This document shows positions 1 through 60,368 of a stretch of 64,000 nt of DNA, one piece after another. The translations under genes and the position numbers were made by a program. This DNA comes from Methanothermococcus sp. SCGC AD-155-E23 (GTDB lineage: Archaea > AGJL01 > Methanococci > Methanococcales > Methanococcaceae): assembly GCA_019561615.1 (NCBI GenBank), contig JAHEQA010000036.1, positions 1 to 64,000 on the forward strand. Reading direction: 5' to 3'. Numbering within the stretch: the first letter of the stretch is position 1; each line of letters begins with the position of its first letter. A model generated the notes under the pieces. It saw only the letters and a program-made list of their open reading frames with translations, was not told where the DNA came from and did no database searches.

Positions 1-22
1 TAGCCAGCTAGACCATGGGCCC
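1..22 (-). tRNA. 5' fragment of a tRNA (probably tRNA-Val), truncated by the window edge
   Basis: Reverse complement reads GGGCCCATGGTCTAGCTGGCTA (acceptor 5' strand plus D-arm), resembling Methanococcales tRNA-Val. The anticodon is outside the window. Confidence 0.75.
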
Positions 23-46
23 AGTTAAAACAAATAACAAATCTTC

Positions 47-58
47 TATATAAAAATT
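47..58 (-). promoter_or_regulatory. TATA box of the edge tRNA
   Basis: TTTATATA on the minus strand at 54-47, about 25 bp upstream of the tRNA 5' end at 22. Confidence 0.65.
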
Positions 59-101
59 ACGGTTTAATGAATACAAACGCACTACCATATTAAGGGAGAC
101 C

Positions 102-1169
102 ATGAAGGATAAGGCACTTAAAAACTTCCTCAGGGATAGGGAGGAGGTGGTGAGATACTCCTCAGAGAGGGATGAGAAAAGTATTGAAAAATTTAAAAGG
201 ATATTGATGGAGATTAAGGAGGAGAGAGACACAAAGATAGTGGCAGACTATACAGAGTACAACCCACTTCATCTGGGACATAAGTACTGCCTCAGGAGAG
301 GGAAGGAGGAGGGCCTCTTTATAAGTGTCCTCCCTGGACCTCTGGAGAGAAGTGGAAGAGGGGTACCCTATCTAGTAGATAGATACATAAGGGCTGAAAT
401 GGCTATTAGGGCAGGTGCAGATATAGTAGTTGAAGGACCCCCTCTAGGTATCATGGGTTCTGGACAGTACATGGAGTGTATAGTTAAGATGTTCCACACT
501 CTAGGTGTGGAGGTTATACCTAGGGGCTATATAAAAAACCCTAGTATGGAGAGGATAATAGAGCTTATAAATAAGGGATATCACATCAAGGTGAAGCCCT
601 ATAGAATATCCTGTATTGAAACTGGAGAGTTTATCTGTGAGAAACTTGAGATAGACAACTACATAATAGCCTCCCTGTCCTACACCATGTACAAACTTAA
701 CAGGAGATATGGACTAAACTTCCACCCAAGATTCCTCTTCGTAGAGCGGTTAGAGGGTATAAGTGGTAGTAAAATCAGGGAGTATATATACAGTGGTAGA
801 TTCCAGGAGATAAGGGATATGGTCCCTGAGACCACCTTGGAAGTTCTAGAGGAGTACTCTGGAGGAGATATAGAGGGGATTATCCTTAAGAGGTTTGAGG
901 ACAGAATACTGGAGACTGCCAACGAGTACCCCCTTGAGAGGTATGTTCCAAGGCATATAGCTGAAGTGTTAGAGAGGAATAGACCCTATAGAAGTCTTGA
1001 GGAGATTAGGGAGGCTATACCCCAGGGTTTCTCCAGACATCTCAGGGAGAGGATCCTCTCCAGGTTGGAGTGTAGAATAGAGAGTGATGTTATCTCCAAT
1101 TATATCAGGAACTACCCCTCTAAAATAAGGATACTGGCTATAAATAAAAGTATCAGGGATATACTTTAA
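102..1169 (+). CDS. HIGH-motif nucleotidyltransferase, TmcAL/UPF0348-like (tRNA cytidine acetate ligase family)
   Basis: TEYNPLHLGH (HxGH) motif, ERSGRG-P, RAEMAIRAGADIVVE and ISGSKIRE (SAS/T-IR-like), all typical of the TmcAL family. Confidence 0.75.
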   Translation: MKDKALKNFLRDREEVVRYSSERDEKSIEKFKRILMEIKEERDTKIVADYTEYNPLHLGHKYCLRRGKEEGLFISVLPGPLERSGRGVPYLVDRYIRAEMAIRAGADIVVEGPPLGIMGSGQYMECIVKMFHTLGVEVIPRGYIKNPSMERIIELINKGYHIKVKPYRISCIETGEFICEKLEIDNYIIASLSYTMYKLNRRYGLNFHPRFLFVERLEGISGSKIREYIYSGRFQEIRDMVPETTLEVLEEYSGGDIEGIILKRFEDRILETANEYPLERYVPRHIAEVLERNRPYRSLEEIREAIPQGFSRHLRERILSRLECRIESDVISNYIRNYPSKIRILAINKSIRDIL

Positions 1170-1192
1170 TAAAGGTTAGGAGGGGAAACACC

Positions 1193-1867
1193 TTGAAGAA
1201 ACAGAGGTTCTGCCTAGATACCACTGCCATCACAGATAGTGAAGTGAGAAAGTCTCTAAATGTCTCTACAATTACCGAGTGTGCAGAGAAGATACTGGAT
1301 CTCATTGCCCAATCTAGGATATACCTGGATATATCCTGTCACATACCCTATCCAAGTGTATACAACGAATTGATAGGTTTCCTTAAGAGGGAGGGATGTC
1401 CAGAGGAGATTATAATAAAGGTGGACACCTGGCTGGTAAAGAAGACCCCAAATAGATACGAGATAAAACTCCCTGCAGAGATACTCTACGAATATATAAA
1501 GGATTTGAGGGAGAGGATAAACAAGGGTATGAGGTTAAGTGAAAGTGCAATGTATGAAACTGCAGAGGAGATGTACAACCTTGCAAGGGAGGGGGAGGAA
1601 AAGAGGGAGTTAATCAACACAGTGCTTTCAAAAACTGTAAACACCTTTAGAAGTAAGTATAGAAATGCCCTTAGAACTGGAACCCTGGACAGCGCCCCTG
1701 ACTTAGATGTACTACTTCTTGCAAAGGAGCTAGATGCAGCAGTTGTAGCCAGTGATGAAGGTATTGAAAAGTGGGCTCAACGTCTAGGTCTAAGGTTTGT
1801 TAAGGCAAAGGACTTCCCATTTATCTTAAGGGAGTACCTCTCCTATGTGAAAAAAGAGTACAGGTAG
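1193..1867 (+). CDS. RNA-free RNase P (HARP, PIN domain, UPF0278)
   Basis: QRFCLDTT start, K-PNRYEIKLPA, RERINKGMR, R-GTLDSAPDLDVLLLAKELDA and ASDEGI motifs. TTG start after a GGAGGGG RBS. Confidence 0.9.
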   Translation: MKKQRFCLDTTAITDSEVRKSLNVSTITECAEKILDLIAQSRIYLDISCHIPYPSVYNELIGFLKREGCPEEIIIKVDTWLVKKTPNRYEIKLPAEILYEYIKDLRERINKGMRLSESAMYETAEEMYNLAREGEEKRELINTVLSKTVNTFRSKYRNALRTGTLDSAPDLDVLLLAKELDAAVVASDEGIEKWAQRLGLRFVKAKDFPFILREYLSYVKKEYR

Positions 1868-1872
1868 ACACT

Positions 1873-2427
1873 ATGGAGCTAGAGGAGTTTGTAAGAATAT
1901 GTCATCTCCTCTACGAGAGGAGGTACGTGGTAGGTAGTGGAGGTAACGTAAGTATACGACAGGGGGATAAGGTATACATCACCCCTACAGGTTCTATCCT
2001 GGGATGGCTAAGGGAGGAGGATATCGCTGTTGTAGATATGGAGGGTAATGTTATAAGAGGTAACCCCTCCTCAGAGTTGAAGATGCACCTAGCTATCTAC
2101 AGAAGTAGAGAAGATGTAAAAAGTGTAGTACATACCCACTCCCCCTATACCCTGGCCCTCTCAGTACTTGAGAGGGAGATCGAGTTAATAACTCCTGAAT
2201 CTAAAAACCTCATAAAAAAGATAGGCTACCTACCCTACCTAGAGGCAGGTAGTGAGGAGTTGGCAGGGGAGGTGTCCAGGAGGAAGGAGGATGTAATAGT
2301 CCTTAAAAACCATGGAGTTGTATGCCTGGGGAGGGATTTAAAGGAAGCCTATATAAAAATAGAGGTTGTTGAGGAGGTTGCAAAGTTAAACTTCCTTACT
2401 CGTCTTTTACAGTCTCCAGGGCACTGA
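1873..2427 (+). CDS. fucA: class II aldolase, L-fuculose-phosphate aldolase family
   Basis: GNVSIR, ITPTG, PSSELKMH, VHTHSPY and LKNHGVV zinc-binding motifs. Confidence 0.88.
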   Translation: MELEEFVRICHLLYERRYVVGSGGNVSIRQGDKVYITPTGSILGWLREEDIAVVDMEGNVIRGNPSSELKMHLAIYRSREDVKSVVHTHSPYTLALSVLEREIELITPESKNLIKKIGYLPYLEAGSEELAGEVSRRKEDVIVLKNHGVVCLGRDLKEAYIKIEVVEEVAKLNFLTRLLQSPGH

Positions 2428-2674
2428 CTATACTCCATATCTGGGTTCTTGTATGGAGGGGCATATTTGGATCGTCACTTATATCGTCCAGGTACTGTAT
2501 TGCAGTGGCACTTCTTACTATGTACTCCTCCTTCTCATTTAGAATAGCCTCCTTGGCATTCTGTGCTGCAGCCCTTATGTTTCTTGGAACTGTTGTGTCG
2601 TTTATAATGTTGTCCAACATCTGGGCAATCTGTTTTAACTTCTCCTCTGGAGTAAGTTTCTTAGGCTTAAACAC
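2396..2674 (-). CDS. UPF0147 family protein
   Basis: IINDTTVPRNIRAAA and DDISDDPNMPLHTRTQIW signature. Confidence 0.88.
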   Translation of the reverse strand: MFKPKKLTPEEKLKQIAQMLDNIINDTTVPRNIRAAAQNAKEAILNEKEEYIVRSATAIQYLDDISDDPNMPLHTRTQIWSIVSALETVKDE

Positions 2675-2709
2675 CCTCTCACCCCCAAAGATTTTTTAAT
2701 ATTGGAGGA

Positions 2710-3081
2710 TTAACCCTGACCTATCAACTCTGCAATAGGTTTGTCCCCGTACTCCACAACCTTGGTATTTACCTGGACGATATCCTCAGAGATTGTATTG
2801 CCCCTTACACTCTTCCTCTTCCTTACACCCTTCTCCTTTGGTCTGTATCCAGGACCTTTACTTAGTAGTACCCTCTTAACACCTGTACCTGGAATATCAG
2901 GTCTCATAGGGAAACCACACTTGTCAGATCCTCCAGTTATCTTTAACTTGTATCCATCTAAACCAATAAGGGATCCATCTATAATATCCCCTATCTTCTT
3001 ACCTATCAGTGCAGAGGTCTCAACCTCCAACTGATAGGATTTCCCCTCATCATCAGATACAACTACCTTAAACTTAGGCAA
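2710..3081 (-). CDS. rps6e: 30S ribosomal protein S6e
   Basis: GYKLKITGGSDKCGFPMRPD and RKRKSVRGNTI. TTG start after a GGTGAT RBS. Confidence 0.96.
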   Translation of the reverse strand: MPKFKVVVSDDEGKSYQLEVETSALIGKKIGDIIDGSLIGLDGYKLKITGGSDKCGFPMRPDIPGTGVKRVLLSKGPGYRPKEKGVRKRKSVRGNTISEDIVQVNTKVVEYGDKPIAELIGQG

Positions 3082-11693: not shown

Positions 11694-12862
11694 AGTCCTA
11701 GGAACCTAGGTAGGAAGTAAAAGGTACCTATGGCACTTCCCAGGCTTGAGAGGGCTGCCACCATCAACACCCTCATAACGTTGTTATCCATCAAATCCCT
11801 TAACTCCTCACATCTAAGTAGATGTTGGATATCCTCCAGGGTTATACCCCTACACTTTAACTCCACCAATCCCACTATATAACCTGCCCCAATAACAGGT
11901 ATTAGGGAGGTTATAGGGGCTACAAGGAATGCAGTAATAACAGAGGGTAACTTCCCCCTTGCAAGGACCACCCCCAGTGCAGAGAGGGTGCCATTTACCA
12001 GTATCCACTCTAGGGTAAATCTCTTTAACACCTCAGGGTTGGAGGAGAGTGTATATATCCCATAGAGTATAATCCCAATTAAAATCACTGAAAACACTAT
12101 TTTCCAGTAACTCCTCCCCTTCTTTACCTCCATAAGTTCATTTAGATCGATCTCTATCTCCCCCCTCTCAAGTTTTTTCAGATAGTCCACTATCCCCTTG
12201 ACATGACCTGCCCCCACTACAACAAGTATCTTCTCCCTTCCAATACTTGTATCAAAGATGTTCTTTGCCATGTATCTGTCCCTCTCATCAACAAAGACCT
12301 TATAGAGGGTAGGGGATAGATGTTTCAGTATCTCAACTAACTCCTGGGCGTTATCCACCATCTCCCTTATGGTTTTCCTGTCCAATTTGGCAATCTCCTC
12401 CTCTTCAAATAGGTTGAATATTAACTTCAACTTCTCCTTTAGGGGCATACTGTTCAACGCACGCCTAAGTGTAACACCTACAGGCCTATCTATGAGATAG
12501 AGAGGTTTCTTATAGAACTTGGCCAACTCTATAGCCCTCTTCATCTCACTACCTGGTTTAACGTTGAACCTCTCTCCTATCTCTCTCTGAAAACCTGCTA
12601 GAACTGTGTGAAGTAGAAACAATCCAATATCTCCACTTTTCAATACCTCCAGTATATTTATACTCTTTAGGTCTTTATCCCTCCCCTCCCCATTTACAAG
12701 GGCCAGGAACCTCTCACTATCTAACTCCACTGCTATTAGATCAGGATCTATCTCCTTTATAGCCTCCTCTACCTCTCTTATACTATCCTCTGAAACATGG
12801 GCTGTACCTAGGATGTAAATATCACAGGTGTTATGTCCATTGTTTATTCTCACATGATGCAT
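11690..12862 (-). CDS. TraB/GumN (pheromone-shutdown-like) family membrane protein
   Basis: [26 protein letters not shown] and [10 protein letters not shown], plus C-terminal transmembrane segments. Start moved to ATG 12862 after GGTGA. Confidence 0.88.
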
Positions 12863-51623: not shown

Positions 51624-51634
51624 AAGGTGGAAAG

Positions 51635-52162
51635 TTGAGGGGGTATATCGTTGACAACTTAGCTGGTATATTCCCCCGTGAGAAAAGTGTTTTAGACCTT
51701 TTCAAGGAGAGGATCAACAGGGCTATTGAGAAAGATCAGGAGATCTCCTTTAAAATCGCTGTTGGATTTTTCTTTTTTGAGGGTTTTCAGAAGTTATATC
51801 CAGAACTTAAAAAGTTATATGAGAGAGGACTTCTTAAGGAGTTTAAACTTGTAATGGGGCCAGAAACTAGAAGGACTACCAAGGAAGTTTTGGAGGCCTT
51901 GAAAAGTGATGGAGCAGTGCTTAACAGTGAGGCCTTTAACTTTCTAAGGGAGTTGTACAACAGTGGGAGGTTTGACTTCAGAGTGTTCCTAGATAGAAAC
52001 TTCCATATAAAATTATACCTCTTTGAGATTGGAGATGAAATAGAGATATGGGCAGGTTCTGCAAATTTAACTAGAGGTGGGTTGGAGAGAAATATCGAGT
52101 TGATAGTCCCTGTATCTGCATTAACCTTTGAGGATAGGGATCTCTATAGGGAGTTTTTTTGA
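51635..52162 (+). CDS. PLD/HKD nuclease domain; 5' part of a frameshifted PLD-helicase gene
   Basis: AVGFFFFEGF, FHIKLYLFE (HxK) and WAGSANLT-GGL--N-E. Ends at TTT TTT TGA within a T7 run. Confidence 0.82.
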   Translation: MRGYIVDNLAGIFPREKSVLDLFKERINRAIEKDQEISFKIAVGFFFFEGFQKLYPELKKLYERGLLKEFKLVMGPETRRTTKEVLEALKSDGAVLNSEAFNFLRELYNSGRFDFRVFLDRNFHIKLYLFEIGDEIEIWAGSANLTRGGLERNIELIVPVSALTFEDRDLYREFF

Positions 52163-54644
52163 GGAGATATGGAAGAGATCCACAGATAGAGTGGAGGATT
52201 TAGAGGTAATAGATGTAATTGGAAAGGCCTCCACCTCTGAGGCTATCTACCTACATCCAAGGGATTTTATAGCAAACCTAATAAGGATCCTCAATAAAGG
52301 CTACCTTGTTAAGAATATAAGTGCAGACCTCTCCTATCTGGCAGAGTTTCAGTATATGAGTTACTACCTCTGTATAGACAAGTTAAATAGATACGGTGGA
52401 TGTATCCTGGCCAACTCCTTTGGCTTAGGTAAAACTGACGTTGGGTGTATGGTAGCAAAGTACTACAAGGAGTTGGGTAAGAGGGTTTTGATTATCCATC
52501 CTCCAGTATTAAGGGAGCACTGGAAGAAAACCCTGGAGAAGGTTGGACTAAAAGAGGGGGATGTTGAACTACTGTCAAGGGGTAAACTTCAGAAGGGGGA
52601 TTTCGACTACGAGAGATATACAGGTGTTGATCTAATTGTGGTAGATGAGGCCCACCACTTCAGGGTTTCAAGACCAAAGTCCAATAGAAGGGGGAACTTA
52701 GAAAACATAGTAAAGGTCAACCCAGAGTCCCATGTACTTCTCATCACCGCCACACCGATAAATATCTCCCTTCTCGATTTCATAGATCTAGTAAAACTTT
52801 TTGTTAAGGGGAGATACAAGGAGAGGTTTGAATCGGAAGGTATCCTTGCCAAAATGAAGGAGGTGGAAAGGGATATTAAAAAAGGAAGTATAACCCAGGA
52901 GACCATTAAGAAGTTAAATGAATTGATAAAGGTGTTTTCCGTAAGGATAGAGTGGCCAGACCTCCCACTTTACTTCAAGGAGGATCTTAAAAAAATTGCA
53001 GGTGTCGAGGATATAGAGGAGCCAGATGTAGTCCCTGTTAACTACAGGTACGACGAGGAAATTGCAAGTAAGATCTTCGATGAAGTTATACCCTTTCTAA
53101 GCCAGGTTAACTATGAGTATACGAAGCTGTGGGAGGGAGTATATAGGGAGGACAAGAACCTGATATGGTGGTATAAGTGGAGACTTTACAAGAGGCTTGA
53201 AAGTAGTATAATGGCATTTAAGGTAAGCTTGGAAAATTTTTACAGGAGAAATAGATTCCTTCTGGCATTCCTCAGGAAGGTTGCTGTTAATCCGGGATAC
53301 TGGGAAGACACCACATTATTCAGCAAGAGTAGGCTGGAGAATATAAAAAATACATTTCTCTCCCTTCCAGATTCAAAGAGGGAAGAAGTCCTGAAGAGGA
53401 TTGAGGAGGATATAGATACCAGTAGGAGGATGTTAGACAGTATTGAGGGTATTGAAAATCTTGAGGAGAGAGATGAGAAGATAAATAAACTCCTTGAGAT
53501 CCTTGAAAGGGAGAAGAAGCCAACGATTGTATTCTCTGAGTCAAAGGATACAGTGATCTACATAGGGAAGAGACTTGAAAGGCATGGGAAGTTTAAGTTC
53601 AAAGTTATCTACGGTGGAGAGGATTCCTCCAATAAGAAAGAAAGGGTAGAGAGGGAGTTTAACGAGGGTAAATTTGACATCCTCGTTACTACAGACGTGT
53701 TAAGTGAAGGTGTCAATCTACCTAGGGCCGATGTAGTTATAAATTTCGACCTCCCTTACAACCCTGTCCGACTTATCCAAAGGGCTGGAAGGGCTATAAG
53801 GATAAACAACCCTAAGAAGATTACAATATACAACTTTGTACCTGATGAAAGGATTGATAAGGAGTTGGAACTCTGTGAGAGACTTGCCGAAAGGATAGAG
53901 ATTATAATCTCAACTATTGGTCTGGACTTCCTTATCTGGGCTATGGAGAGAGGTAAGTTAGAAGAGATATCTGAAAAGAATAGAAGGAGAACTGTGGAGC
54001 TGATAAGGGAGTACAAGTGTATGCTGGCAAGTAAGGACCCTCTAGAACTTGGTATGAGATTACCTCCTACACTCTCAAAGGAGGACAGGGCACTGAGAGA
54101 TTTTATAAAGTTCTGGAACATCTCGGAGGAAACTGTTGAATCCCGGGCCAGGACATATGGAAAACCCATATTCACCTCCCTGAAGAGGGTGGGGAGGGAG
54201 AGATACTTTGTTGTTTTTAAGTATAGAGGATCCATCTATACCCTGGGTGATTTGACCTTTTCTGATAAGGTGGCGGAGGGGAAAATAAGTAGGGAGGAGT
54301 TGGAGGAGATAAAGAGTTTAGTAGCGGAAAAGTGTTTAGAGATGGACAGGGAGTTTCTGAAGATAAGTTATAGAGATAGGGACAGGATCACCAGGGAGAT
54401 AGAGAGGATACTAGAGGGAATGGAGAGGTTGAAGAAGATATTTAGAGATGTTGATATATCCACCCTCCCAAGGAGGGAGAAGGAGGACATTTTAAAAGCC
54501 CTGAAAAAGATTGAGAAAACTCCACCTTGGAGGAGGGAGGGGGAGATAAGGAAGTTAGAGAGTAAAGTAGAGCAGTTAAAGAGTAGAGGACATCAAAGAG
54601 TTCTAGATGAACCTGAGATTTTGGCCATACTGAAATACACATAA
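52128..54644 (+). CDS. SF2 (SNF2-like) helicase; 3' part of the frameshifted PLD-helicase gene (fused length 1002 aa)
   Basis: Motif I ILANSFGLGKT, II DEAHH, III TATP, KRLESS, V TDVLSEGVNL, FDLPYNP and VI QRAGRAIR. No convincing RBS or start of its own. Confidence 0.85.
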   Translation: MRIGISIGSFFEEIWKRSTDRVEDLEVIDVIGKASTSEAIYLHPRDFIANLIRILNKGYLVKNISADLSYLAEFQYMSYYLCIDKLNRYGGCILANSFGLGKTDVGCMVAKYYKELGKRVLIIHPPVLREHWKKTLEKVGLKEGDVELLSRGKLQKGDFDYERYTGVDLIVVDEAHHFRVSRPKSNRRGNLENIVKVNPESHVLLITATPINISLLDFIDLVKLFVKGRYKERFESEGILAKMKEVERDIKKGSITQETIKKLNELIKVFSVRIEWPDLPLYFKEDLKKIAGVEDIEEPDVVPVNYRYDEEIASKIFDEVIPFLSQVNYEYTKLWEGVYREDKNLIWWYKWRLYKRLESSIMAFKVSLENFYRRNRFLLAFLRKVAVNPGYWEDTTLFSKSRLENIKNTFLSLPDSKREEVLKRIEEDIDTSRRMLDSIEGIENLEERDEKINKLLEILEREKKPTIVFSESKDTVIYIGKRLERHGKFKFKVIYGGEDSSNKKERVEREFNEGKFDILVTTDVLSEGVNLPRADVVINFDLPYNPVRLIQRAGRAIRINNPKKITIYNFVPDERIDKELELCERLAERIEIIISTIGLDFLIWAMERGKLEEISEKNRRRTVELIREYKCMLASKDPLELGMRLPPTLSKEDRALRDFIKFWNISEETVESRARTYGKPIFTSLKRVGRERYFVVFKYRGSIYTLGDLTFSDKVAEGKISREELEEIKSLVAEKCLEMDREFLKISYRDRDRITREIERILEGMERLKKIFRDVDISTLPRREKEDILKALKKIEKTPPWRREGEIRKLESKVEQLKSRGHQRVLDEPEILAILKYT

Positions 54645-54654
54645 GGGTGATAAT

Positions 54655-57600
54655 TTGGTAAAGTATAACCTGGATTATTTGAAGAGAAAGGGATTCTTTA
54701 AAAGGGCCATCCCGCTGGAGGATGTTGAGGGGGTGCTAGTTGACCAGGAGAATATGCTGGCCTATGTGGAGGTTTCCTCCAGGGAGGAGGTTGAGAGGAT
54801 AAGGAAGAAGTTACTACCCTTAAAGGTTAACTATATCTGGTTTTACTTTCCATCTACAGGGAAGTTAAAAGTCTTTAGAAGGATAGGTGAGATTAAGTGG
54901 TTCTACTACTCGCCCAACATGAGGAAAGACTACAGGAAAAGTAGAGAGGATAAGCTAAGGAAATTCTCCCCTGACAACATGAATATCCTCTTTGATATCA
55001 GGGATATTGTAGAGAAGTTCTACTGGGAGTTGTGGGAGCATAGGATCCTAATGGCCAAAAGTATAAGGGAGTTGAAGGAGGATAGAAACAAACTTCTCGT
55101 TGTTCAACGTTTTATCGACAGACTTATCTTCTTCTACTTCCTGGCCCAGTTGAAGCTTATAAAGATAAAGAGCGGGGGGATGGAGTGGGTCCTAGACAGG
55201 AGGAATACAAGGGAGTTCTTCCAGTGGATCTGTAATCAACTTAATGATAAGGAGCTACAGGATTTTCTCAACAGGATATTTTTCGACGTTCTAGGAAAGA
55301 CTAACGAGAGGGGTTTTATCTCAGAGGAGTTTGAGGTTGGAGGGGAGAGGTTCTCCATCCTTTCACCCTGTTTAAATGGAGGGTTGTTCATCGAGGAGAA
55401 GTTTGAAGGTATCCCAGAGAGAAAGATCAGAATCTCTGGGATAAAAGAGTTGATCCTCAATGTCCTTAACAACTACAACTGGATAATTGGAGAGGAGCTT
55501 CCAGAGGAGGAGGATGTTGTTGGAGATTTAACACCTGAGGTTATTGGACATATCTACGAGAAGTTTGTAGTCTCCCTGGAACAGATAGGACTGGGAAAGA
55601 TAAAGTTGGAGGATATTCAGACTGTGAGGAGAGAGCTAAGATATGGTAGGAAGAAAATAGGCGCCTACTACACCCCTGAGGAGATCACCAACTACATCTC
55701 CATGAATACCATCTACCCCTATATCAGAGACAAATTAGGGGAGAGGTTTGGTAGTAAAGGGGAGGCCCTATTTGACAACCTCTTTAATAAGGAGGATTTT
55801 AGCAGGGAGGAACTGGAGATATTAAAGTACCTCTACTTTGAAGTGTTAACAAAGTTAAGGATCTGTGATAACGCCTGTGGTTCAGGGAGTTTTTTAATCG
55901 CCGCCGGAGATATCCTACTTGGGCTGTACACTAGGGTTTTGAAAATTTTGGAGGAGCATCTAGGTGAAGATAGAGATGTTAAAAAGATTCTAGAAGAGAT
56001 GGAAAAATCTCCAACAAGGAATTACTACATAGTTAGGCAGATAATTATAAACAACCTCTACGGAGTAGACTTAATGGAGGGGGCAGTTGAGATCGCCAAG
56101 TTAAGGTTTTGGCTCTGGCTGATATCCCAGGTTGACCCTAAAAGTATTGAGGGTAAAAGGATTGAAACACTGCCAAATCTAGACTACAACTTAATGGTAG
56201 GTAACAGCCTCATTGGATATGTGGACATTGAGGATGTGGATTTGGACTTTATAGCTCATAAAACTTTAGACTCCTGGTTGGGAATTAGTAAGGTGGAATG
56301 GCTTAAAAACCTGGCTAAAAAGATAAGGGAGTTTAAGACCCTACCATCTCACGAGGCTGTAAAATTAAAGGAGAAATTAAATAGAGAGTTGGAGAAAGGG
56401 AGGGAGTTCTTAAATGAGAAGTTCTACAATATGTTGAAGGCTAAGGGGGTTAAGATCTCCAAGGAGGAGTTTTTAAATTTGAAACCCTTCCACTGGGGCT
56501 TTGAGTTCTATGAAGTTTTTGATTTGGAAAAACCTAAGGAGGAAAGGGGTTTTGATATTATAATAGGGAATCCACCTTATGTAAGACAGGAGAAAATCAA
56601 AGAGATTAAGCCAATTCTGTCATGTCTTTATGAAACTTTTGAAGGTAGAGCAGATATTTTTGTCTATTTCATCGAGAGATCTATTCAAACACTTCATAAC
56701 AACGGGTATTTTAGTTATATAGTATCCAACAAATGGTTAAGAGCCAAATATGCAAAGAAATTAAGAAAATTCTTAATAAACAATACCGTTATTAACCAAA
56801 TAGTTGATTTTAGAGGAGTGAAGGTATTTTCCGATCCGACGGTTGATGTATGTATTTTAGTCTGTAAGAAGTCTCCAGTAGCTGATAATTACAAGATATT
56901 TGTTGCCCAGCCTCATTCTGTAGAGGATCTGATAAATAACATAAAAAAGATTGGATTCTATTTGGATGTGAACACCCTAAAAGATGCTGAGATATGGAGT
57001 CTTTATAGGCCAGAAATTTTGGAAATAAAAGAGTGGATAGAGGATGTTGGAGTGCCTTTAAAGGATTTAGATGTTAAAATATACCGTGGTATAACTACTG
57101 GTTTTAATAAAGCGTTTATTATTGATGAAGAAACAAGGAAAAAATTAATTGAAGAAGACCCAAAAAGTGAGGAATTAATTAAACCTGTCCTTAGAGGAAG
57201 GGACATTGGAAGGTATTATGTGAAGTGGGACAGAAAATGGATAATTTGTACCTTTCCAGCATTAAAAATAGATATAGAAAAATACCCTGCTATTAAAGAA
57301 TATTTAAGTAGCTTTGGAGAGAGGTTACTTCAAGATGGAAAACCTGGTCATAGAAAAAAAACATCTAATAAGTGGTTTGAAACCCAAGACCAGATAGCCT
57401 ATTATCCAGAATTTAAAAAACCTAAAATAATATGGCAGGAAATTGTTAGAAAGCCAGGTTTTTATTTTGATAATGGGTATTTCTACCAAGAGGCTACATG
57501 CTTTTTAATGACAGGAAAAGATGTAAATAAAAATTTATTGCTACTATTGAATTCTAAACCTTTGGGGTTTATATTTAAAGCTTTTTATAGTGGAGGAGGT

Positions 57601-58107
57601 CTAGGAGATAAAACCTATAGGTACAAGAAGTATTATTTAGAAAAATTGCCTATCCGACTCCCACCAACCCAACAACCCTTCATCACCCTAGCCAATTACA
57701 TGCTCTTCCTAAATGCAACAGAGGAGAGAAGAAAGAAAGAGAGGGAACTTATAGAGTTTATAGATAGGGAAATAATCGACTCCCTAGTCTATGAGCTATA
57801 CTTCAAAGAAAAATTCCATGAGGATAAATTATATCCAGAACCAAAGGAGTACCTTCTATATTCCATCTCCAAATACTTAAAACCCATTGACTACGATCTC
57901 TGGGCTGAGCTCTACTGGAAAAAGGAGTTAGAAGGAGAATTAGATAAAGAGGAAGAAAATAAGATGAAAGAACTGGAAGAGAAGAATCTAGAGACAATCA
58001 GGGAAGTTGTTGAAAATATCAAAAAAGACAGGGAGATCTTAAGGCAGATAGATAGGATAAAATCCCACCCCTGGGTTAAAACTGTTGAGGAAGAGGATTC
58101 CAGTTAA
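54655..58107 (+). CDS. Eco57I-like (type IIG-class) N6-adenine DNA methyltransferase with C-terminal target recognition domain (TRD)
   Basis: LNGGLF, IGHIYE, GAYYTP, DNACGSGSFL (motif I), LYGVD, LPNL--N---GNSL, GFDIIIGNPPYV (motif IV) and a TaqI-C-like KPVLRGRDI-RY...KPKIIW region. TTG start after GGGTGAT. Confidence 0.9.
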   Translation: MVKYNLDYLKRKGFFKRAIPLEDVEGVLVDQENMLAYVEVSSREEVERIRKKLLPLKVNYIWFYFPSTGKLKVFRRIGEIKWFYYSPNMRKDYRKSREDKLRKFSPDNMNILFDIRDIVEKFYWELWEHRILMAKSIRELKEDRNKLLVVQRFIDRLIFFYFLAQLKLIKIKSGGMEWVLDRRNTREFFQWICNQLNDKELQDFLNRIFFDVLGKTNERGFISEEFEVGGERFSILSPCLNGGLFIEEKFEGIPERKIRISGIKELILNVLNNYNWIIGEELPEEEDVVGDLTPEVIGHIYEKFVVSLEQIGLGKIKLEDIQTVRRELRYGRKKIGAYYTPEEITNYISMNTIYPYIRDKLGERFGSKGEALFDNLFNKEDFSREELEILKYLYFEVLTKLRICDNACGSGSFLIAAGDILLGLYTRVLKILEEHLGEDRDVKKILEEMEKSPTRNYYIVRQIIINNLYGVDLMEGAVEIAKLRFWLWLISQVDPKSIEGKRIETLPNLDYNLMVGNSLIGYVDIEDVDLDFIAHKTLDSWLGISKVEWLKNLAKKIREFKTLPSHEAVKLKEKLNRELEKGREFLNEKFYNMLKAKGVKISKEEFLNLKPFHWGFEFYEVFDLEKPKEERGFDIIIGNPPYVRQEKIKEIKPILSCLYETFEGRADIFVYFIERSIQTLHNNGYFSYIVSNKWLRAKYAKKLRKFLINNTVINQIVDFRGVKVFSDPTVDVCILVCKKSPVADNYKIFVAQPHSVEDLINNIKKIGFYLDVNTLKDAEIWSLYRPEILEIKEWIEDVGVPLKDLDVKIYRGITTGFNKAFIIDEETRKKLIEEDPKSEELIKPVLRGRDIGRYYVKWDRKWIICTFPALKIDIEKYPAIKEYLSSFGERLLQDGKPGHRKKTSNKWFETQDQIAYYPEFKKPKIIWQEIVRKPGFYFDNGYFYQEATCFLMTGKDVNKNLLLLLNSKPLGFIFKAFYSGGGLGDKTYRYKKYYLEKLPIRLPPTQQPFITLANYMLFLNATEERRKKERELIEFIDREIIDSLVYELYFKEKFHEDKLYPEPKEYLLYSISKYLKPIDYDLWAELYWKKELEGELDKEEENKMKELEEKNLETIREVVENIKKDREILRQIDRIKSHPWVKTVEEEDSS

Positions 58108-58511: not shown

Positions 58512-60368
<1,857 letters not shown>

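Follow-up and report, generated by a model that had tools for sequence, protein, structure and literature searches.

Does a restriction gene of a methanogen carry a programmed +1 frameshift site, or has the gene simply been broken? The question is raised by a junction in the 64,000-nucleotide stretch of contig JAHEQA010000036.1 of Methanothermococcus sp. SCGC AD-155-E23 that was analysed here (the window). An open reading frame (ORF) for a PLD-type nuclease ends at a run of seven T (T7), and the frame of an SF2 helicase continues from it in the +1 register. An earlier note on this DNA, made from the letters alone, likened the junction to the frameshift cassette of bacterial prfB and offered three readings: programmed +1 recoding, a phase-variable homopolymer, and recent inactivation or a sequencing error. 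The observation itself is confirmed and its interpretation is partly supported. Every relative examined has an intact gene, which argues for an ordinary recent mutation or an artefact and not for a programmed signal. Probably, a one-base insertion specific to this lineage or assembly, in a tract of six T (T6) that encodes Phe-Phe, breaks the gene for the restriction subunit of a restriction-modification (R-M) pair of which the methylase is intact.

The junction and the two overlapping frames

The junction reads GAT CTC TAT AGG GAG TTT TTT TGA G, with AGGGAG at 52148-52153, the T7 run at 52154-52160 and the TGA at 52160-52162. The PLD ORF (51635-52162, + strand) has a TTG start, encodes 175 residues and reaches 27.9 bits for the PLD/HKD nuclease domain PF13091 (cut-off 27). 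In the +1 frame, positions 52128 to 54644 form an open frame for an SF2/SNF2 helicase core that is followed by a long C-terminal region, with matches to Helicase_C (E 3.8e-27) and SNF2-rel (E 1.6e-08) and readable GLGKT and DEAH motifs. Omitting one T fuses the two frames through ...REFFEEIWKRS... to a chain of 175 + 827 = 1002 residues, which is the exact length of the intact orthologue in the related genome G011. The continuity of the two frames, as first noticed, is therefore confirmed.

The helicase frame had also been described as lacking a credible ribosome-binding site or start of its own, and this was borne out. No GGAG- or GGTG-type motif occurs within 18 nucleotides upstream of its possible starts TTG 52128, GTG 52191 and ATG 52356, and the next candidate, ATG 52449, is located behind the Walker A motif. 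Motifs of this type are used by the organism's genes, and the other gene starts at the locus have ribosome-binding motifs (AGGTGG for the PLD gene and GGGTGAT for the methylase). Translational re-initiation to give a PLD-less helicase is unsupported, since no start with a ribosome-binding site is found ahead of Walker A; a leaderless or coupled restart is still conceivable.

The prfB site of bacteria, AGG GGG UAU CUU UGA, is conserved and autoregulatory through RF2. Taken alone, the window shares with it a Shine-Dalgarno (SD)-like hexamer, a spacer of 3 nucleotides, a codon with perfect +1 re-pairing and an in-frame UGA. The shift-prone UUU codon followed by in-frame UGA is present as UUU UUU UGA, and the stop is made by the inserted T. 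The + strand of the window has 124 copies of AGGGAG, as compared to about 16 expected for a random hexamer, and finding the motif at the junction can be put down to chance. The genome contains 925 A/T runs of exactly six and 256 of exactly seven bases, and given these counts one slipped T6 tract is an unsurprising event.

Comparison with relatives

A DNA search with the 3010-base stretch that holds both frames (51,635-54,644) covered 41 related genomes, the window's own assembly (G000) included; in what follows G005, G009, G011, G012, G013 and G030 are related genomes and L-numbers are metagenome loci. Some match at E <= 0.001 was found in 10 of the 41 genomes. Long matches were obtained in three genomes of the same genus, namely G011 (98% identity across all 3010 bases), G009 (92% over bases 1-787, up to its contig end) and G005 (80% over bases 12-3003). 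Over 241 bases around the site, G011 differs from the window by seven substitutions and one gap, and the gap is one T of the run. Its junction reads AGG GAG TTT TTT GAG GAG and lies in a single ORF of 1002 residues. In G009 the corresponding sequence is AGG GAG TTC TTC GAT GAA, which is open across the junction and on to the contig end, and in G005 it is AGA GAG TTT TTC AAT GAA within an ORF of 1004 residues. An exact scan with a degenerate junction pattern returned no stretch from the metagenome contigs and two records from the genome contigs, both in frame. Seven further loci with 68-77% identity, again all in frame, came from a protein-guided scan of the metagenome contigs.

The relatives read at the codon level are thus G011, G009, G005 and the seven metagenome loci. 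All ten are in frame across the junction and the break occurs in none of them. The AGGGAG hexamer is kept in two, the others having AGAGAG, AGAAAA, AGAAGA, AGGCAA, AGGAGA or AGAAAT, and the codon ahead of Phe-Phe is GAG (3), AGA (3), AAA (2), CAA (1) or AAT (1). Phe-Phe itself is written TTT TTT in seven relatives, TTT TTC in two (G005 and L027) and TTC TTC in one (G009). Since neither hexamer, nor T run, nor break is conserved, the resemblance to a prfB cassette is best regarded as a coincidence. The metagenome relative L030 has the junction AAT TTT TTT GAA, with an in-frame T7 at the same place; as its preceding codon ends in T, a run of seven T is here compatible with an intact gene.

The same picture emerges at the protein level. 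A search of five relatives' genomes gave one stop-free open frame of 1005-1030 residues in all five. In a large protein collection 433 proteins match at E <= 1e-10, and of the 75 listed whose identity is 48% or more, 68 are single proteins of 976-1042 residues that span at least 95% of the 1002-residue query. In the databases these orthologues are called 'NgoFVII family restriction endonuclease' or 'helicase-related protein' and are assigned to Methanothermococcus/Methanofervidicoccus-type organisms. Short PLD-only relatives are few (7 at E <= 0.001 among 73 candidates), none of them stops at ...REFF, and six close ones end at differing places. These six (P0007-P0012) are on metagenome contigs of 0.8-6 kb, some with out-of-frame tails, and reflect either a gene family that is frequently broken in nature or low-quality assemblies.

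The position of the break within the protein can also be considered. Phe175 and Trp179, which flank it, are invariant in 27 homologues down to 24% identity, as are H124, K126, G141, S142 and N144 in the same alignment. An AlphaFold model made for the intact orthologue, with a mean pLDDT of 83.9, shows residues 165-181 as one confidently predicted helix. According to this model, the 175-residue product would end within a conserved helix of the PLD domain and not at a linker or domain border.

An alignment of orthologues was the check that the earlier note had proposed for its own idea of recoding. Neither the break nor the AGGGAG-UUU-UUU-UGA context is conserved; intact single ORFs are found instead, the outcome that it had set against recoding, and the in-frame genes of the relatives support its third reading, recent inactivation or error. 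A one-base insertion before GAG, in a Phe-Phe tract that follows Arg-Glu codons, can mimic a prfB cassette by accident, and comparison with a relative of 98% identity settles such a case quickly. The features of the locus, all on the + strand, can then be listed as follows.

51625..51630, + strand: ribosome-binding motif AGGTGG, 4 nucleotides before the TTG start of the PLD-helicase gene, as read from the sequence
51635..52162, + strand: 5' fragment of the broken gene with the PLD/HKD nuclease domain, 175 codons, ending at the TGA created by the extra T
52148..52153, + strand: AGGGAG, Arg-Glu codons that are SD-like by coincidence, kept in 2 of 10 relatives
52154..52160, + strand: T7 run, the lesion, consisting of ancestral TTT TTT (Phe-Phe) and one inserted T as judged from relatives and metagenome contigs
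52161..54644, + strand: 3' fragment in the +1 frame, with the end of the PLD domain, the SF2/SNF2 core (GLGKT, DEAH, Helicase_C) and the C-terminal region, 827 codons and stop
54645..54651, + strand: ribosome-binding motif GGGTGAT of the methylase, directly 3' of the helicase stop
54655..58107, + strand: intact N6-adenine DNA methyltransferase of 1150 residues with a TaqI_C-type specificity domain (Eco57I / type IIG-like / PglX-like)

Sequencing runs and reliability of the assembly

Part or all of the stretch is contained in 13 of the 15 sequencing runs listed. In run X1, a possible source of the window, a Logan contig matches all 1601 compared bases, T7 included, at a mean word depth of 652. 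Runs X3, X4 and X7 are hydrothermal-vent metagenomes from three other studies, and each has a contig that lacks one letter at 52154. The depths of these shorter contigs are 186.8 of 268.5 in X3, 52 of 52 in X4 and 4.94 of 4.94 in X7. Three further records of X3 continue after the sixth T with GATGAG..., which is likewise in frame. Among the contigs of the four runs compared, T7 is found in X1 alone. Run X2 is another possible source with a share of 0.99, a share that cannot distinguish T6 from T7.

A census of indels was made by aligning about 60 kb of the window to eight contigs of G011 (91-97% identity), with all 78 indels listed. Of these, only the T at 52160 interrupts a long ORF in the middle of a gene. 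The other indels are multiples of three, are compensated within tens of bases, lie within about 100 bases of ORF boundaries, or are intergenic. The lack of any other mid-gene frame-breaking indel suggests that the assembly is not error-ridden and favours a real allele. At 59646 a 2-nucleotide difference from G011 lies 93 bases before the end of an ABC-transporter ATPase ORF (59553-60368, minus strand), where it would alter the last 31 or so codons in one of the two genomes.

The assembly itself has 51 contigs, 1.04 Mb in total, at 86% completeness and 42.9% G+C, and the window is on its contig C36. A run of 82 C is present near the start of contig C45 (bases 11-92) and a run of 15 G at the very end of C40 (5095-5109). 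These runs at contig ends look like sequencing-chemistry artefacts. A genome-wide scan for ORF pairs split at homopolymers gave 29 candidates including this site; it cannot separate split genes from adjacent genes and was not used for an error rate.

The age of the break was considered by polarising codon changes with G005 as the outgroup. The G000 branch has 13 synonymous and 5 non-synonymous changes, the G011 branch 15 and 4, and 27 codons are unpolarised. The broken copy shows neither relaxed constraint nor a second lesion. With no decay on the G000 branch, the break would be recent, or it is not real, or the gene would still be working, three cases that the codon-change test cannot separate; taken at face value, the absence of decay suggests that the break is young.

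Possible explanations

In view of the above, several explanations can be compared, and the one we favour, with somewhat better than even confidence, is a plain insertion. Polymerase slippage would have added one T to the ancestral TTT TTT, either in the lineage or in the single cell behind the assembly, and the insertion would split a single gene of about 1002 residues for a SauUSI/MtsD-like restriction subunit. The stop would follow automatically, because the extra T and the next codon GAG read TGA. AGGGAG would be mere Arg-Glu codons of a conserved segment without any evolved recoding signal, and full-length protein, if made, would be owed to background slippage on the U run alone, without selection for it. 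With a downstream methylase that is intact and served by a ribosome-binding site of its own, one would predict a restriction-minus, methylation-plus (R-minus, M-plus) state, a common way for R-M systems to decay or to be harmlessly switched off. We infer both this phenotype and the presence of T7 in living cells.

Several points weigh against this explanation. Run X1 may be the window's own source data and would then not be independent. The comparison of runs was made on assembled contigs, which cannot reveal a minority of T6 reads. The T6 contigs of X3, X4 and X7 carry the substitutions of G011 at 52190, 52200 and 52203, so that they sample the sister allele and not the strain of G000. The pattern of purifying selection on the G000 branch would also be seen if the gene still worked in spite of T7. 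A slip early in amplification would leave an identical picture, should the DNA have been amplified from a very small amount of template.

The last point leads to a technical origin, in which whole-genome amplification, library PCR or sequencing introduced the extra T and the organism has T6 and an intact gene. This we regard as unlikely, while it is the most serious of the competitors. It would be consistent with the confinement of T7 to the window and to X1, every other source being in frame, with the lack of secondary decay in the gene, and with a fragmented, incomplete draft that has poly-G and poly-C runs at contig ends. Antonov et al. (2013; PMC3711429) expect that most singleton frameshifted genes with a match to a full-length protein of another species are sequencing errors. 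Yet the separately made Logan assembly of X1 gives T7 at high depth with no alternative contig reported, and the single frame-breaking indel in about 60 kb of comparison with G011, despite many A/T runs, indicates that homopolymer errors are not general in the assembly.

Phase variation, in which slippage between T6 and T7 reversibly switches restriction off while methylation stays on, had been the second proposal of the earlier note and appears improbable. A homopolymer length polymorphism does exist between alleles of 98% identity, with T7 in the window and X1 and T6 in X3, X4 and X7 (contigs of the sister allele), and the gene is one for a restriction subunit, followed by an independently translated methylase. 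DNA-modification genes and poly-A/T stretches of 7 or more nucleotides have both been associated with phase variation (PMC3711429). The tract is short, however, having six T in intact alleles, follows from the choice of Phe-Phe codons and is interrupted in 3 of 10 relatives. A single off-length is known from a single source in a genome that is rich in comparable A/T runs, and the short metagenome relatives break elsewhere and not at the T tract. A full-text literature search for phase-variable homopolymeric R-M tracts in archaea gave as its sole match a paper on Mycoplasma. Little beyond the bare T6/T7 difference speaks in favour of this proposal.

In programmed +1 frameshifting of the prfB type, the ribosome would pause at UGA, AGGGAG would pair with 16S rRNA and tRNA-Phe would slip from UUU to UUU, giving free PLD domain and some fusion protein. 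The local layout fits this scheme, the organism uses GGTG/GGAG-type ribosome-binding motifs, and the helicase frame lacks its own start and is undecayed. The hexamer, spacer, shift codon and UGA seen by the earlier note are indeed present in the window, but hexamer and T run are not conserved (AGGGAG in 2 of 10 relatives, the T run broken in 3 of 10) and the TGA is made by the insertion itself. The locus differs from prfB in that the break is absent from all ten relatives, with a stop-free single frame in five of five genomes, and in that the SD-like motif is variable coding sequence. Archaea have a single aRF1 and are not known to have an RF2, so that the RF2-sensing logic has no archaeal counterpart. 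A product ending inside the predicted PLD helix would also be an odd target for recoding. For Antonov et al. a frameshift counted as programmed only where five or more frameshifted genes formed a cluster in which the site is conserved (PMC3711429), and the present site falls outside that definition. A 2021 review, in the excerpt used here, gives the -1 event in fucA1 as the sole demonstrated case of programmed frameshifting in a cellular gene of archaea; it also mentions a +1 event that may occur in a haloarchaeal virus and a frameshift that has been suggested for the Mg chelatase of Methanococcales (PMC8211752). The fucA1 gene of Saccharolobus solfataricus likewise consists of two overlapping ORFs whose fusion is the full-length enzyme (PMC8211752, PMC1616953). 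It differs in that its shift is in the -1 direction, at a heptamer that has flanking signals, and in that experiments have verified it, whereas the present case is a +1 arrangement known from sequence, with an intact allele in a relative of 98% identity. Programmed recoding is thus very unlikely, and the claim was not sustained by the relatives.

The earlier note had further suggested that slow UGA termination in a selenocysteine-using lineage could help such recoding. A tRNA-Sec with anticodon TCA is found in G000 (bases 12038-12125, complement; Aragorn gave 32 tRNAs in the draft), but nothing ties selenocysteine to this site.

Between a dead and a programmed gene lies a leaky one. Here T7 would be real and fixed, and U7-UGA with AGGGAG would let a few per cent of ribosomes or transcripts slip, resulting in a low, self-limiting level of full-length enzyme together with full methylation. 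The selection pattern on the G000 branch (13/5) is compatible with such a functional allele. According to the excerpts of Rockah-Shmuel et al. (2013), indels arise readily in homonucleotide runs of 3-8 bases and can be partially bypassed by transcriptional or translational slippage (PMC3812077), and Baranov et al. (2005) describe that an ORF broken at an A/T run may be made whole again in the mRNA (PMC1088944). Our case is similar in being a single-base indel in a short run of a gene of a DNA-modification system, with sporadic bypass as the feature of the published examples (PMC3812077, PMC1088944). Those data are from bacteria and laboratory work, however, and the runs that are counter-selected for slippage in many bacterial genomes are about 9 bases long, as compared to 7 here (PMC1088944). 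We give the leaky allele only a slim chance. If true, a +1 recoding site would here have arisen by chance in a cellular gene of an archaeon and be seen just as it came into being.

The restriction-modification pair

If the plain insertion is real, the allele would represent an R-minus, M-plus form of a defence pair of vent methanogens that consists of two genes, for a PLD-helicase and a methylase, and seems to be mobile. Loss of a restriction subunit in this way is ordinary. The intact pair, a minimal two-gene relative of the SauUSI/MtsD-type motor nucleases, may merit study separately.

The intact orthologue combines a PLD nuclease (PF13091, 29.8 bits against the cut-off of 27) and an SF2/SNF2 motor in a single chain. 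Helicase_C, SNF2-rel and ResIII pass their cut-offs both in the intact orthologue and in the window fragments, where the chain is broken. The best full-span PADLOC match is the 'HKD+Snf2' model (residues 113-769, E 2.1e-31), with partial matches to DrmD, BrxH and 'PLD_Helicase', and there is a weak match to PF09565 of the NgoFVII family. In a Foldseek comparison of the model of the intact orthologue with the PDB, the top match is SauUSI (7clg, E 3.6e-16, 890 columns), at a global TM-score of 0.20-0.24, a low value that is expected because the chain has multiple domains. SauUSI is also matched by sequence (E 2.4e-11).

The methylase starts ten bases past the helicase stop, behind GGGTGAT, and has the domains Eco57I, N6_Mtase and TaqI_C. 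Models of type IIG enzyme-methylases match its methylase and specificity parts (E 1e-101), and the matches to PglX/DrmMI are weaker. Going by domain content and linkage, we read the two genes as a minimal ATP-dependent R-M system, in which the methylase would recognise the sequence and the PLD-helicase would translocate and cleave. The linkage is seen in all five relatives searched, which have a methylase homologue within about 6 kb of the nuclease-helicase in two gene orders: the methylase follows in G011 and G005, and it comes first in the more distant relatives G012, G013 and G030. In G005 the ORF directly downstream of the orthologue is not the methylase, which follows about 6 kb further on. 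The pair is common in Methanococcales and DPANN-like archaea, going by the organism names that the sources give.

Among known systems, SauUSI and MtsD of MANTIS (Gao_RL, BREX-related type 2) have the same order of an N-terminal HKD/PLD nuclease and an SF2 ATPase in one chain of about 1000 residues. SauUSI differs in that it is a type IV enzyme which works alone and carries a target-recognition domain itself. MtsD acts with an N6-adenine methylase against unmethylated DNA, but MANTIS also needs the DUF499 protein MtsA and the DUF3870 protein MtsB, four genes in all according to the excerpt (bioRxiv 10.64898/2026.09.23.753747), whereas the locus here has two genes between housekeeping genes. DUF499 (PF04465) has no match in the 86%-complete G000 and is not among the locus neighbours. 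Between the pair and the housekeeping genes on either side there is no unassigned ORF of 80 residues or more, a statement that includes no search aimed at DUF3870. In CglI, NgoAVII and the NgoFVII family a PLD-type nuclease, a helicase-like ATPase and a methylase likewise act together, as far as the excerpts describe them. In CglI and NgoAVII nuclease and ATPase are separate, with the DNA-recognition domain in the nuclease, unlike the single chain here, where the specificity domain (TaqI_C) is in the methylase. DISARM was considered and rejected: NF038317 DrmD scores 133.8 bits against a cut-off of 610, the PADLOC matches to DrmD and DrmMI are only partial, and DrmA and DrmB are absent from the locus.

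The pair is flanked by genes for glutamine synthetase and a DUF4870 membrane protein, with a radical SAM protein and Toprim nearby. A scan for sigma-70 promoters and terminators gave no more sites than in shuffles, does not model archaeal promoters, and was not used. In G012 and G030 the pair is on a second contig (C2 in both), in G013 it is on C1, and one database homologue is labelled as plasmid-borne in Methanocaldococcus indicus; the pair seems to be mobile. Identity between G000 and G011 is 96.6% in the PLD part, 97.9% in the helicase part and 98.7% in the 5' part of the methylase, with 91.1-95.5% in the surrounding 5-kb bins. The higher identity of the pair may mean that the two lineages exchanged this locus recently. 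The G011 assembly is broken inside the methylase, its contig C41 ending at residue 642 and C100 resuming at residue 1001 (window positions of about 56581-57656). The G005 methylase has 77% identity over residues 3-775 and 58% over residues 906-1146, with no match between. For residues 643-1000 or so, this pattern fits a variable target-recognition domain, as far as can be judged from sequence.

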